Virus record (IMG/VR): IMGVR_UViG_2537561977_000023
Coordinates: 1 to 10,687 of that record
DNA from: a virus
Lineage: Duplodnaviria; Heunggongvirae; Uroviricota; Caudoviricetes
Reading direction: 5' to 3' (one strand)
Length of the DNA stretch: 10,687 bases
In this document: piece after piece, positions 1,002-10,687 of the stretch
How the letters are laid out: each line of letters opens with the position of its first letter
How positions within the stretch are numbered: position 1 is the first letter of the stretch
Notes under the pieces: model-generated
Database searches by the model: none
The model's input: only the letters and a program-made list of their open reading frames with translations
Told to the model about the DNA's origin: nothing
Program-made: the position numbers and the translations under genes

Positions 1002-1588
1002 GTGCTGATTGGCTATGTAAGGGTATCAACAAATGACCAGAATACAGACCTGCAACGAAACGCTCTTGTTTGTGCAGGATGTGAACAAATATTTGAAGAT
1101 AAATTAAGCGGGACAAAGACAGACCGACCGGGATTAAAACGCGCTTTAAAGCGCCTTCAAAAAGGTGACACGCTGGTTGTCTGGAAACTGGATCGCCTCG
1201 GGCGAAGCATGAAACATCTGATTTCTCTCGTCGGGGAACTACGGGAGCGAGGAATTAATTTTCGCAGTCTGACCGACAGCATAGATACATCTTCTCCAAT
1301 GGGGCGTTTTTCTTCCACGTGATGGGTGCCCTGGCTGAAATGGAACGTGAATTAATTGTTGAACGTACACTGGCCGGACTGGCGGCAGCACGCGCACGGG
1401 GGCGCACAGGCGGACGTCGACCGAAGCTGACAAAAGAACAGCATGAGCAAATAGCAAGGCTGATCAAAAACGGGCACGACAGAAAACAACTGGCAATAAT
1501 TTACGGCATTGGTATATCGACGATTTATCGTTACCACCCCGCAGGAGAATCAATCGGAACAATAGAGAAGAGTCAGGAAACAAAATAA
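1002..1588 (+). pseudogene. Serine DNA invertase, Gin/Pin/Cin/Hin family; reading frame broken by a 1-base deficit in the T5 run at 1307-1311 (may be a sequencing artefact)
   Basis: GTG at 1002 preceded by GGAG (991-994). N-terminus [37 protein letters not shown]... is nearly identical to Gin as recalled, with the catalytic serine motif. ORFs 984..1322 and 1319..1588 are the two halves; adding one T gives ...[19 protein letters not shown]... and a protein of about 195 aa. Confidence 0.85.
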
Positions 1589-7194: not shown

Positions 7195-7351
7195 AGCTTC
7201 AGCCCCTTGTATCCGTTAAATGATTCGGCAACAATCATCACCCACCACGCGCGTAATCTCACCCCTGCGCCGTTCTCCCGCCACGGCGACAACGAAAAGC
7301 AGTAACCCCCTCCGCACGCACATGCGACCATGCCGCACAGGGAGGGAGCAG

Positions 7352-8461
7352 ATGACCGACACCACCATGCAATTGCTCAGTCAGAGCACAGCCCCCGTGA
7401 AAATGCCGGATTTTGATATTCTCGCGGAGGGTAAAACGCTGTCCGGCGTGGCAGAGCGCCTGATGAGCCTGTCGCTGACCGACAACCGGGGATTTGAAGC
7501 GGACCAGCTCACCATCACGCTGGATGATGCGGATGGTCAGTTGCAGCTACCACCACGGGGCGCGCGCCTGACGGTTCTCATTGGCTGGAAAGGAGAACCA
7601 CTGACAGAAAAAGGCACTTATATTGTTGATGAAATCGCTCACGAAGGACCGCCGGACAGGCTGACTGTTTCAGCCAGAAGCGCAGATTTTCGGGATGAAT
7701 TTAACGTTAAACGTGAGGTGTCCTGGCATGATGTGACCGTTGAGCGTGTGGTATCCGCCATCGCTCACCGGTACGGTCTGAAACCGCAAATCAGCGAAAT
7801 GCTGATGGATATTGAAATCGACCACGCCGACCAGACCGAAGAAAGCGACATGTCCTTCCTTACGCGCATGGCGGAAATGCTGGGCGCAATCACTACGGTA
7901 AAAAGCGGTAATCTGTTATTCATCATGCCAGGCGGTGGCGTGAACGCACAGGGCCAGCCGTTGCCCTCGTTCGCCATCACGCGCAGCAGTGGCGATCGCC
8001 ATCAGTTCCGCATTGCTGACCGCGAAGCGTATACGGGGGTACGCGCTTACTGGCTTGATCTTAATTACGGGAAAAAGAAAAAAGTCAGCGTGAAACGCCG
8101 CAAACCGCCCAAGCCCAAAAAGGAGAAAAGCAGCAGCCGTGAAGGTGATTATATGGAAGGCGCGGAAGGCAATGTGTTTGTGTTACGCAAGACTTATCAG
8201 AACGAGCAGGCAGCAAGACGCGCAGCGGCGGCAAAGTGGCAGCAGCTACAACGCGGAGCCGCATCATTCTCCATCACGCTGGCGCGTGGACGTGCAGAAC
8301 TCTACCCCGAAATGCATGGCACGGTAACAGGATTTAAAAGCGAGATTGATAATCAGGACTGGATCATTGCAAAAGCCGGGCACACCATTGATAACAGCGG
8401 CTTTACCACACAGCTTGAGCTTGAGGCAAAAATCCCGGAATGGATAGCAGAAACAGAGTGA
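7352..8461 (+). CDS. D: P2 gpD-like tail protein (phage late control D family), 369 aa
   Basis: ATG at 7352 preceded by GGAGGGAG (7341-7348). The track's 7220 start adds a low-complexity N-terminal extension with no RBS and overlaps the FI promoter region, so 7352 is preferred. Confidence 0.75.
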   Translation: MTDTTMQLLSQSTAPVKMPDFDILAEGKTLSGVAERLMSLSLTDNRGFEADQLTITLDDADGQLQLPPRGARLTVLIGWKGEPLTEKGTYIVDEIAHEGPPDRLTVSARSADFRDEFNVKREVSWHDVTVERVVSAIAHRYGLKPQISEMLMDIEIDHADQTEESDMSFLTRMAEMLGAITTVKSGNLLFIMPGGGVNAQGQPLPSFAITRSSGDRHQFRIADREAYTGVRAYWLDLNYGKKKKVSVKRRKPPKPKKEKSSSREGDYMEGAEGNVFVLRKTYQNEQAARRAAAAKWQQLQRGAASFSITLARGRAELYPEMHGTVTGFKSEIDNQDWIIAKAGHTIDNSGFTTQLELEAKIPEWIAETE

Positions 8462-8503
8462 GCAACTTAGAATAGCGGCAACACCACGTTAAGGGAGGTC
8501 GCT

Positions 8504-8764
8504 ATGTTCCGTTGTCCGCTTTGTGGCGCATCTGCCCGTATCCGCACCAGTCGTCCGGAAAATGATTCAAACACCGTGCGGCAAAAGTATTACCAGTGTA
8601 ACAACCTGGAATGCGGCGTATGCTTCTCAACACTGGAAGCTTTCCATAAATTCACATCAAAACACGCCTCCGGCGTTCACTCTTCAGAAGGTATCCCGTG
8701 GCATGAACTGCCAGCTTCACACAGGGGAAACAATCAGATGAGTTTGCCTTTACCTCAGAATTAA
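8504..8764 (+). CDS. ogr: Ogr/Delta-family zinc-finger late-gene transcriptional activator, 86 aa
   Basis: MFRCPLCGASARIRTSR...YYQCNNLECGVCF has the CxxC...CxxxxC zinc-binding pattern and close similarity to P2 Ogr as recalled (MFHCPLC...HQCQNVNC). ATG at 8504 with AGGGAGG 5 nt upstream. Sits after D, as in P2. Confidence 0.8.
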   Translation: MFRCPLCGASARIRTSRPENDSNTVRQKYYQCNNLECGVCFSTLEAFHKFTSKHASGVHSSEGIPWHELPASHRGNNQMSLPLPQN

Positions 8765-8852
8765 CAGGCAGAATTGCCGGAGTAACAAAAAAGCGATAGA
8801 TTACGTGCGGGTGCCTTTCGGCTGATGGTCGGAGGGAATACCCGAAGGCCAG

Positions 8853-9089
8853 ATGTGGAAAGGCCCCGGAAAACATTTTTGTTTAACCGAGGCCCTAACA
8901 CTTCTTACCTTCGCAAGTAGAAGGTTAGCGCCTCTCCTCTCAGGAGACAAGCGTTATGACGCAAATTCCGTTAAAAACCCTGTTACTTTGCATAACTGCG
9001 GTAGCGATAATCTGGATCCTCCACACATCACCGTGCGAGTTACGATTCAGGTTTGCTGGCACGGAAATTGCGGCATTCTTACTATGTAA
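8853..9089 (+). CDS. mok-like overlapping reading frame of the hok locus (translational coupling frame), 78 aa
   Basis: ORF begins 103 nt upstream of the hok ATG and ends 7 nt before the hok stop in another frame, the arrangement known for mok/hok. Its own sequence is not distinctive. Confidence 0.4.
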   Translation: MWKGPGKHFCLTEALTLLTFASRRLAPLLSGDKRYDANSVKNPVTLHNCGSDNLDPPHITVRVTIQVCWHGNCGILTM

Positions 9090-9096
9090 TAAGTAA
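8956..9096 (+). CDS. Hok/Gef-family type I toxin (small membrane peptide), 46 aa; absent from ORF track
   Basis: Translation MTQIPLKTLLLCITAVAIIWILHTSPCELRFRFAGTEIAAFLLCNK: N-terminal hydrophobic helix followed by the conserved C-E-L-R-F-R ... E-(V/I)-A-A-F core seen in Hok, HokB and Gef as recalled. AGGAG at 8942-8946, 9 nt before the ATG. Confidence 0.75.
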   Translation: MTQIPLKTLLLCITAVAIIWILHTSPCELRFRFAGTEIAAFLLCNK

Positions 9097-9184
9097 GATA
9101 ACCGCGACGGGGGAGTAATCCCCCGTCAATCGGTTGCTAAGGTTGGTCGAAGCGGCACCCTATCTCACTGGCATGAACAACAAA

Positions 9185-9216
9185 CCCGCAGCGTAAAAAC
9201 TGCGGGTTTTCTTTTT
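9185..9216 (+). terminator. Intrinsic terminator, plus-strand orientation (candidate 3' end of the hok transcript)
   Basis: Stem CCCGCAG/CTGCGGG with 8-nt loop, followed by TTTTCTTTTT. Confidence 0.55.
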
Positions 9217-9248
9217 GGTTCCCTCATTCATGAGGACACCAAAAACAA

Positions 9249-9278
9249 AGCCCACAGCATAGAATCTGTGGGCTTTTT
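9249..9278. terminator. Intrinsic terminator hairpin, possibly bidirectional
   Basis: Perfect 9-bp stem AGCCCACAG/CTGTGGGCT with 8-nt loop; TTTTT follows on the plus strand and TTGTTTTTGG on the minus strand. Confidence 0.55.
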
Positions 9279-9352
9279 GCATTCAAAGATGGACGTTATA
9301 TGGACACTTAAAAATAAAATCCATTTATTTTCAAATAATTAAACTTCTGCTT

Positions 9353-9374
9353 AAAGCGCCCGCAGGCGCTTTTT
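9353..9374. terminator. Hairpin immediately 3' of serS (likely serS terminator; T-run is stronger on the plus strand)
   Basis: AAAGCGCC-CGCA-GGCGCTTT perfect 8-bp stem with 4-nt loop, about 20 nt downstream of the serS stop (9395-9397). Confidence 0.5.
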
Positions 9375-9394
9375 AGATTCAGAAAAATTGGGTA

Positions 9395-10687
<1,293 letters not shown>

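Follow-up and report, generated by a model that had tools for sequence, protein, structure and literature searches.

A probable attR junction of a P2-like prophage at the serS terminator stem-loop of Escherichia coli

In the RefSeq record of phage P2 (NC_001895), which we used as the P2 reference, the features that follow ogr are a rho-independent terminator, the Int P arm, an IHF site, the core, Cox sites and a P′ arm that overlaps the 3′ end of int. The published consensus of the integrase arm-type site is tgTGGaCa (PMC3448106). At the chromosomal position considered here, a P88-like (Xuanwuvirus) prophage named "GI-3" was already reported in 2025, downstream of serS in the ST131 E. coli strain NS30 (PMC12632120). 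That report calls attL and attR only "inverted repeats", labels serS a "serine recombinase" and does not dissect the arm. The wording "inverted repeats" fits a palindromic core of the kind described below; the label miscalls the gene, since serS encodes seryl-tRNA synthetase. Our literature search returned no description of P2-like prophage integration at serS, the one paper to mention a prophage beside this gene being the ST131 report (PMC12632120).

We analyzed a window of 10,687 nucleotides (the whole stretch of DNA studied) and, within it, the interval 9097-9394 between the stop codons of a hok gene and of serS. We read this interval as the attR junction, comprising P arm, core and B′, of a P2-like (P88/Xuanwuvirus-type) prophage inserted between dmsA and serS, and we assign this reading a probability of about 0.88. 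The initial annotation had proposed a prophage/host junction next to an undisrupted serS, with the core either between hok and serS or between ogr and hok. Alignment to prophage-free chromosomes located the insertion point. The serS part of the window is matched by all 5426 complete E. coli genomes, and in the prophage-free ones the similarity begins only at 9353. Because the empty-site genomes match only from this position, the sequence up to 9352, hok included, is inserted DNA, of which 256 bases fall in the interval, and hok is not native chromosome, as the initial annotation had considered it might prove to be. The K-12-type empty site, which lies directly between dmsA and serS, reads ...gacaaaaAAAGCGCCCGCAGGCGCTTTttagattcag....

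The same comparison identified the core. In complete lysogens an identical 20-mer, AAAGCGCCCGCAGGCGCTTT, lies at both ends of the prophage, on the dmsA/int side and on the hok/serS side. In S931B and UMNK88 it is present at attL (...gacaaaaaAAAGCGCCCGCAGGCGCTTTaacgtttc...) and again at attR (...cttAAAGCGCCCGCAGGCGCTTTttagattc...), and the 20-mer is also found in the K-12-type empty site. The duplication is thus seen in relatives whose identity to the window is 93-96%, the window itself coming without the other prophage end. At the dmsA side of the window's own genome, we would expect the integrase gene, then AAAGCGCCCGCAGGCGCTTT, then TTTTGTCTCCC, and the attP joint predicted after excision is CTTAAAGCGCCCGCAGGCGCTTTAACGTTTC. 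In the window, the core (O) occupies 9353-9372 on both strands; it is the stem-loop of the serS terminator, the third hairpin of the initial annotation and the boundary between prophage and host. The remaining 9373-9394 (minus strand) is host DNA, the B′ arm, and consists of the rest of the serS 3′ UTR up to the stop codon at 9395-9397; it is identical in prophage-free genomes. The serS gene (9395-10687, minus strand) encodes an intact protein of 430 aa with both seryl-tRNA synthetase Pfam domains, and its DNA is 99.8% identical to that of K-12-type strains; the gene was not disrupted. Of the two places suggested for the core, the hok-serS interval was therefore correct, while the one between ogr and hok is excluded by the free phages P88 and Chuche, which carry hok in the same slot. 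In the mechanism that we propose, a P2-type tyrosine integrase, encoded at the far end of the prophage by dmsA, would recombine attP with a 20-bp attB, AAAGCGCCCGCAGGCGCTTT, and this target would be the stem-loop that terminates serS transcription.

Several hok/gef loci are present on E. coli chromosomes, along with numerous palindromic repeats between genes. A cluster of hairpins downstream of serS might for this reason be taken for host repeats of the REP, BIME or ERIC type, with hok chromosomal and the junction further to the left, a possibility that the initial annotation had left open. However, none of the 5074 empty-site genomes contains anything to the left of 9353, the free phages P88 and Chuche carry ogr, hok and the first terminator-like hairpin (T1, below) in this order, and the segment 9240-9440 occurs about once per genome and only beside serS. 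A search of the window with Rfam returned no match to a repeat family. We rejected this explanation on the empty-site comparison and give it practically no chance of being correct.

The attR reading gains further weight from comparison with P2 at the sequence level. Positions 9247-9372 align, in the same order, to the first four features of the attP of P2, which is annotated from experiments in NC_001895: the second terminator-like hairpin (T2) aligns to the P2 terminator, and gATGGACgttatATGGACA aligns to gATGTGGTCAatgTGTGGACG in the P2 Int P arm. The right half of P2 attP finds its counterpart in the attL of S931B, with which it aligns. P88 and Chuche have the same layout with cores of their own. 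The predicted arm-type sites of the P arm (9289-9306, plus strand) are the direct repeats gATGGACg and tATGGACA, 11 bp or one helical turn apart, whose hexamers ATGGAC stand at 9289-9294 and 9300-9305, 11 bp from start to start. Both this repeat and the surrounding AT-rich stretch had been pointed out in the initial annotation, and both are in the place it gave, 9280-9350. Hexamer pairs with an 11-bp spacing occur three times in the whole 10.7-kb window. Of the 8 positions of tgTGGaCa, 7 are matched by the second repeat and 5 by the first. The pair recurs with unchanged spacing on the int side of lysogens (L005 7522-7538, with starts at 7522 and 7533), inside the 3′ end of int. ATGGAC N5 ATGGAC is accordingly present in both arms, and at least two direct arm-type repeats lie on each side of the core, as judged from the window together with the int side of the lysogens.

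Between these repeats and the core, the DNA is rich in A+T (75% over 9280-9350, versus 47% for the whole window). It includes a putative IHF-type bending site at 9308-9345 (both strands), in which TTTCAAATAATTA at 9329-9341 is one mismatch away from the consensus WATCAANNNNTTR. The window sequence AAATAAAATCCATTTATTTTCAA aligns to AAATAAATCCTTTTATTTCAA, the annotated IHF protein_bind feature of P2. Among 13 attR variants, most of the changes in this region affect either the NNNN positions of WATCAANNNNTTR or the spacer that precedes the core; in the E. albertii variant, the conserved TT of the consensus is changed as well. We read the ATGGAC repeat and the AT-rich tract as the integrase-arm and IHF elements that are standard in P2-type sites, and from their sequences we infer that Int and IHF bind there. 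By analogy with the P2 system, integrase dimers would contact the core with their core-binding and catalytic domains and would use their N-terminal (arm) domain for the ATGGAC repeats, IHF would bend the AT-rich tract and let the arm-bound integrase reach the core, and Cox, acting on the int-side arm in attL, would direct excision.

Inverted-repeat search and folding recovered all three perfect-stem hairpins that had been described in the interval, at the places given for them, the earlier ranges having taken in the T tails. T1 (9182-9216, both strands) has arms of 10 bp at 9182-9191 and 9200-9209 that pair perfectly, so that the stem spans 9182-9209, followed by the tail TTTTCTTTTT. Its folding energy is -16.3 kcal/mol (z -3.7), and none of 200 shuffles folded as well; on the plus strand we read it as the terminator of the hok mRNA. 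T2 (9247-9278, both strands) has perfect arms of 11 bp at 9247-9257 and 9266-9276 (z -4.6; 0 of 200 shuffles as good) and aligns to the annotated terminator of P2 attP outside the P arm. The third hairpin, which is the core, has perfect arms of 8 bp at 9353-9360 and 9365-9372 and taken alone beats its shuffles only weakly, with z about -2 and 9-10 of 200 shuffles as good. Two hairpins were found in addition to these. One lies at 9106-9127 (9 bp perfect, z -4.7). The other, central hairpin at 9212-9245 (both strands; z -2.9) consists of an outer stem, TTTTTGGT/ACCAAAAA, and an inner stem, CCTCA/TGAGG; it is kept in 13 distinct attR sequences, which vary little.

In the central hairpin, the right half (TGAGGACA) looks like an arm-type site. 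Over 9231-9245 (TGAGGACACCAAAAA), it is similar to the second arm repeat with its flank at 9299-9313 (TATGGACACTTAAAA), and this segment could represent a third arm site for integrase, weaker than the other two, or be what is left of a duplication. T1 and T2 also resemble each other, and the block 9178-9279 forms an imperfect palindrome of 50+50 nt, 72% complementary, with its center at 9228/9229. T1 may have arisen by duplication of the ogr terminator and have arrived together with the inserted cargo.

Folding of 9170-9290 gave three adjacent hairpins on either strand, with z values of -8.0 and -6.9. A scan for terminator-like structures found 5 sites in 8400-9700, versus 2.0 ± 1.3 in shuffled sequences, and a promoter scan of the same segment found none. 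When a terminator is defined as a GC-rich stem-loop with a T-rich tail, T1 qualifies on either strand. T2 does so on the minus strand and, if A-T pairs are left out of the stem, on the plus strand as well. Judged by position and aligned sequence, T2 is the counterpart of the P2 feature annotated as "rho-independent terminator for ogr transcript and F operon". It shows one compensatory change, from C-G to T-A, in the sequences L020 and L026. For the four hairpins together, 99.3% of cells in the 13 attR sequences are paired, yet 174 of 500 shuffles equaled this value, so covariation is not significant among sequences that are 95% identical. Rfam matches to a microRNA, to SR1 and to a Thr-leader were dismissed as chance matches to hairpins.

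The position of these hairpins raises the question of whether the block 9178-9279 acts mainly as a retroregulator of int, like λ sib/tI, and not as insulating terminators. Transcripts of int would then cross attP into the block in the circular phage and be processed, and in the prophage the block would be separated from int. The geometry is that of λ, in that int is read toward attP and the P arm is immediately followed by the block; the long palindrome, the strong folding of the minus strand and the conservation of the block beside different upstream cargo are also consistent with such a role. The minimum free energy structure, however, is composed of three separate short hairpins and not of a long duplex of the RNase III type, the homologous P2 hairpin is annotated simply as the ogr/F-operon terminator, and the covariation result adds nothing in favor. 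We therefore regard a mainly sib-like role as very unlikely and keep to the reading of T1 and T2 as terminators. To our knowledge, no N-type antitermination has been described in P2-like phages.

The left part of the interval belongs to the hok gene. The 46-aa reading frame that ends at 9096 encodes a Hok/Gef protein (PF01848, 33.8 bits versus a cutoff of 22), and 9097-9216 is the 3′ end of its mRNA, composed of a stem-loop after the stop codon, an fbi element and the T1 terminator. Within the 3′ UTR (9097-9150, plus strand), the stem-loop at 9106-9127 is followed by an fbi-like segment at 9131-9150 that pairs with the 5′ end of the mRNA at 8809-8826. This pairing closes the predicted minimum free energy structure of 8809-9216 (z -8.9) and, in the folding model, is the tac/fbi closure typical of hok mRNAs. 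The Rfam model of sok (RF01794) scored 47 bits on 8809-8967 (E 9e-9), and no sok RNA in the window reached the gathering score of 59 bits.

P88 and Chuche have this cassette through T1 and then diverge, their similarity to the window stopping at 9216 and 9231. In UMNK88, a toxin-antitoxin cassette of YafO type takes the place of hok, and everything from 9181 rightward is shared with the window. Because UMNK88 exchanges hok and keeps the sequence from 9181 rightward, the slot from ogr to T1 can be seen as exchangeable cargo and the segment from T1 to the core as a conserved attachment module. The hok/sok locus is shown to be phage cargo and not part of the chromosome. The slot (8765-9216 in the window; 2026-3402 in L006) holds hok/sok here, a YafO-family pair in UMNK88 and, in Chuche, com and a DNA methyltransferase gene after hok.

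Integration at this core divides the serS terminator between the two junctions. The hairpin of the empty site is followed by seven T, of which the attR copy keeps three, and the T-run moves to attL. These counts were read directly from the sequence, the terminator scan having returned nothing for the empty-site hairpin, whose T-run is absorbed by the longest-stem rule. In the scan, the core hairpin of attL passes, with the tail TTTTGTCTCC, and that of attR fails, with the tail AAGCAGAAG (the hairpin is followed by TTTAAGCAG). We infer from these tails that the attR hairpin is a weaker terminator for serS and that serS transcripts are in part read through, to stop at T2 or T1. At the other junction, the phage-derived attL hairpin with the host T-run would stop C-int transcripts before dmsA, and on the plus strand T1 and T2 would end the hok and late (ogr/F-operon) transcripts before they enter serS in antisense. 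The site would also provide a clean example of a phage that uses a terminator hairpin as attB yet supplies spare terminators of its own. It is conceivable, though unlikely in our estimate, that in about 6% of E. coli serS transcripts run about 100 nt into the prophage, through the core, the putative IHF site and the predicted Int arm sites, before T2 or T1 and couple serS expression to the assembly of the excisive complex, or else that the three-hairpin block acts on int in a sib-like manner.

The prophages of S931B and UMNK88 are complete P2-like elements of about 36 kb between dmsA and serS, with the order dmsA, int, C, cox, replication genes, capsid and tail genes, D, ogr, cargo, serS. In both, a tyrosine integrase gene lies at the junction opposite to attR and is transcribed toward the core. 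The integrase of S931B has 330 aa and a P2-like N-terminus, and its gene ends 84 bp from the core; that of UMNK88 is alike. The nearest integrase of a free phage is 56% identical. The Cox of this phage is a protein of 173 aa unlike P2 Cox, and a search of both arms, including L005 7400-7700, for the P2 cox-box TTAAA(G/C)NC(A/C) found none. Gene D, further inside the prophage, is a single reading frame of 413 aa with the GPD Pfam domain in the window (7220-8461), whereas related RefSeq genomes (L002 2209-3062; L005 42064-42917) give a shortened gene of 801 nt with an upstream pseudogene fragment; the D protein of Chuche has 369 aa. The start of D is probably annotated inconsistently.

To place the junction in the species, we took a census of the 5426 complete E. 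coli genomes. It found attR in 347 genomes, attL in 344 and an intact empty dmsA-serS spacer in 5074, and in these genomes the site is occupied by almost nothing else. Scans with the P-arm motif returned attR junctions only, and another 28 loci from metagenomes, IMG/VR and E. albertii all showed the same attR junction. When the arm was compared with 50,697 phage records by megablast and blastn, only T1 was matched, in P88 and Chuche. ST131 genomes were among the best matches to the window. The right boundary of a prophage present in about 1 in 16 complete E. coli genomes, ST131 included, is now fixed exactly, and its 20-bp target can be named, a gain that chiefly concerns annotation.

A rival reading takes the junction for a decayed remnant that has become fixed, with elements that can still be recognized, but that no longer excises and has no present function beyond termination. 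Several observations are consistent with such a remnant. Exact attP junctions (P arm, core and P′ arm) gave 0 matches in IMG/VR, JGI metagenomes and GTDB genomes, although absence of attP from assemblies does not demonstrate inability to excise. An identical integrase is encoded in three phage records, all of them cut-outs of prophages with dmsA still attached. The UMNK88 copy carries an IS3 insertion and pseudogenes, and the DNA invertase gene of the window is frameshifted. In contrast, the integrase, C, Cox and all structural genes of the S931B prophage are intact, and the core and the arm repeats are perfectly conserved in the 13 distinct attR variants and in E. albertii. Furthermore, the prophage has a patchy distribution, being carried by 6% of E. 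coli genomes in several lineages and found in two species, which implies repeated integration. On balance, we consider a decayed, fixed remnant unlikely and retain the reading of the interval as the attR of a P2-like prophage.

Two of the records mentioned above deserve a remark of their own. The "phage genome" entries ON470599.1 (L007) and PV468777.1 (L008) are prophage cut-outs with host dmsA, and their ends are not true phage ends. The invertase gene of the window (1002-1585, plus strand), of Hin/Cin type and located by the tail-fiber genes, carries a frameshift at a run of T near 1301-1310. Over its first 103 aa, the product shows 100% identity with the protein of S931B, which is intact and has 199 aa; the remainder lies in another frame, so the gene is either a pseudogene or the result of a sequencing error.

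Compared with known systems, the locus is an ordinary site of a known kind at a position that has already been reported, and it does not represent a new kind of system. GI-3 of strain NS30 (PMC12632120) belongs to the same prophage family and occupies the same chromosomal position, whereas the copy in the window is only 93-96% identical to any complete genome searched. λ sib/tI resembles the locus in position only: in both, int is transcribed toward attP, on the far side of which lies a hairpin terminator. The hok/sok locus of plasmid R1 is similar in having a Hok/Gef reading frame, an overlapping mok-like frame, tac-fbi closure, a stem-loop downstream of the stop codon and a terminator at the 3′ end, in what we take to be the layout of the R1 hok mRNA. 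It differs in that the locus of the window is phage cargo, in that the sok model scores 47 bits there, short of the gathering score of 59, and in that the likeness covers only 9097-9216 of the interval.

The likeness to P2 lies in the order of the elements. Both have a terminator on the ogr side, two arm repeats 11 bp apart, an IHF site (annotated in P2, putative here), a core, a spacer of about 90 bp and two arm repeats in the 3′ end of int, and the terminator, the arm repeats and the IHF region align at the level of sequence. Other traits differ. The core is the 20-bp hairpin of the serS terminator, in contrast to the 27-bp core of P2 at locI, and the host target is accordingly another; the arm repeat is ATGGAC here and TGTGGAC in P2; and the distance from the P arm to the core is greater by one helical turn. 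Between ogr and the P arm there is a hok/sok cassette that brings a terminator of its own, the Cox protein is of a longer type and no P2 cox-boxes were found in the arms, and the integrase is at most about 56% identical to those of free-phage relatives. We conclude that the serS site is a member of the P2-type family of attachment sites, with a core specificity that is new relative to P2.
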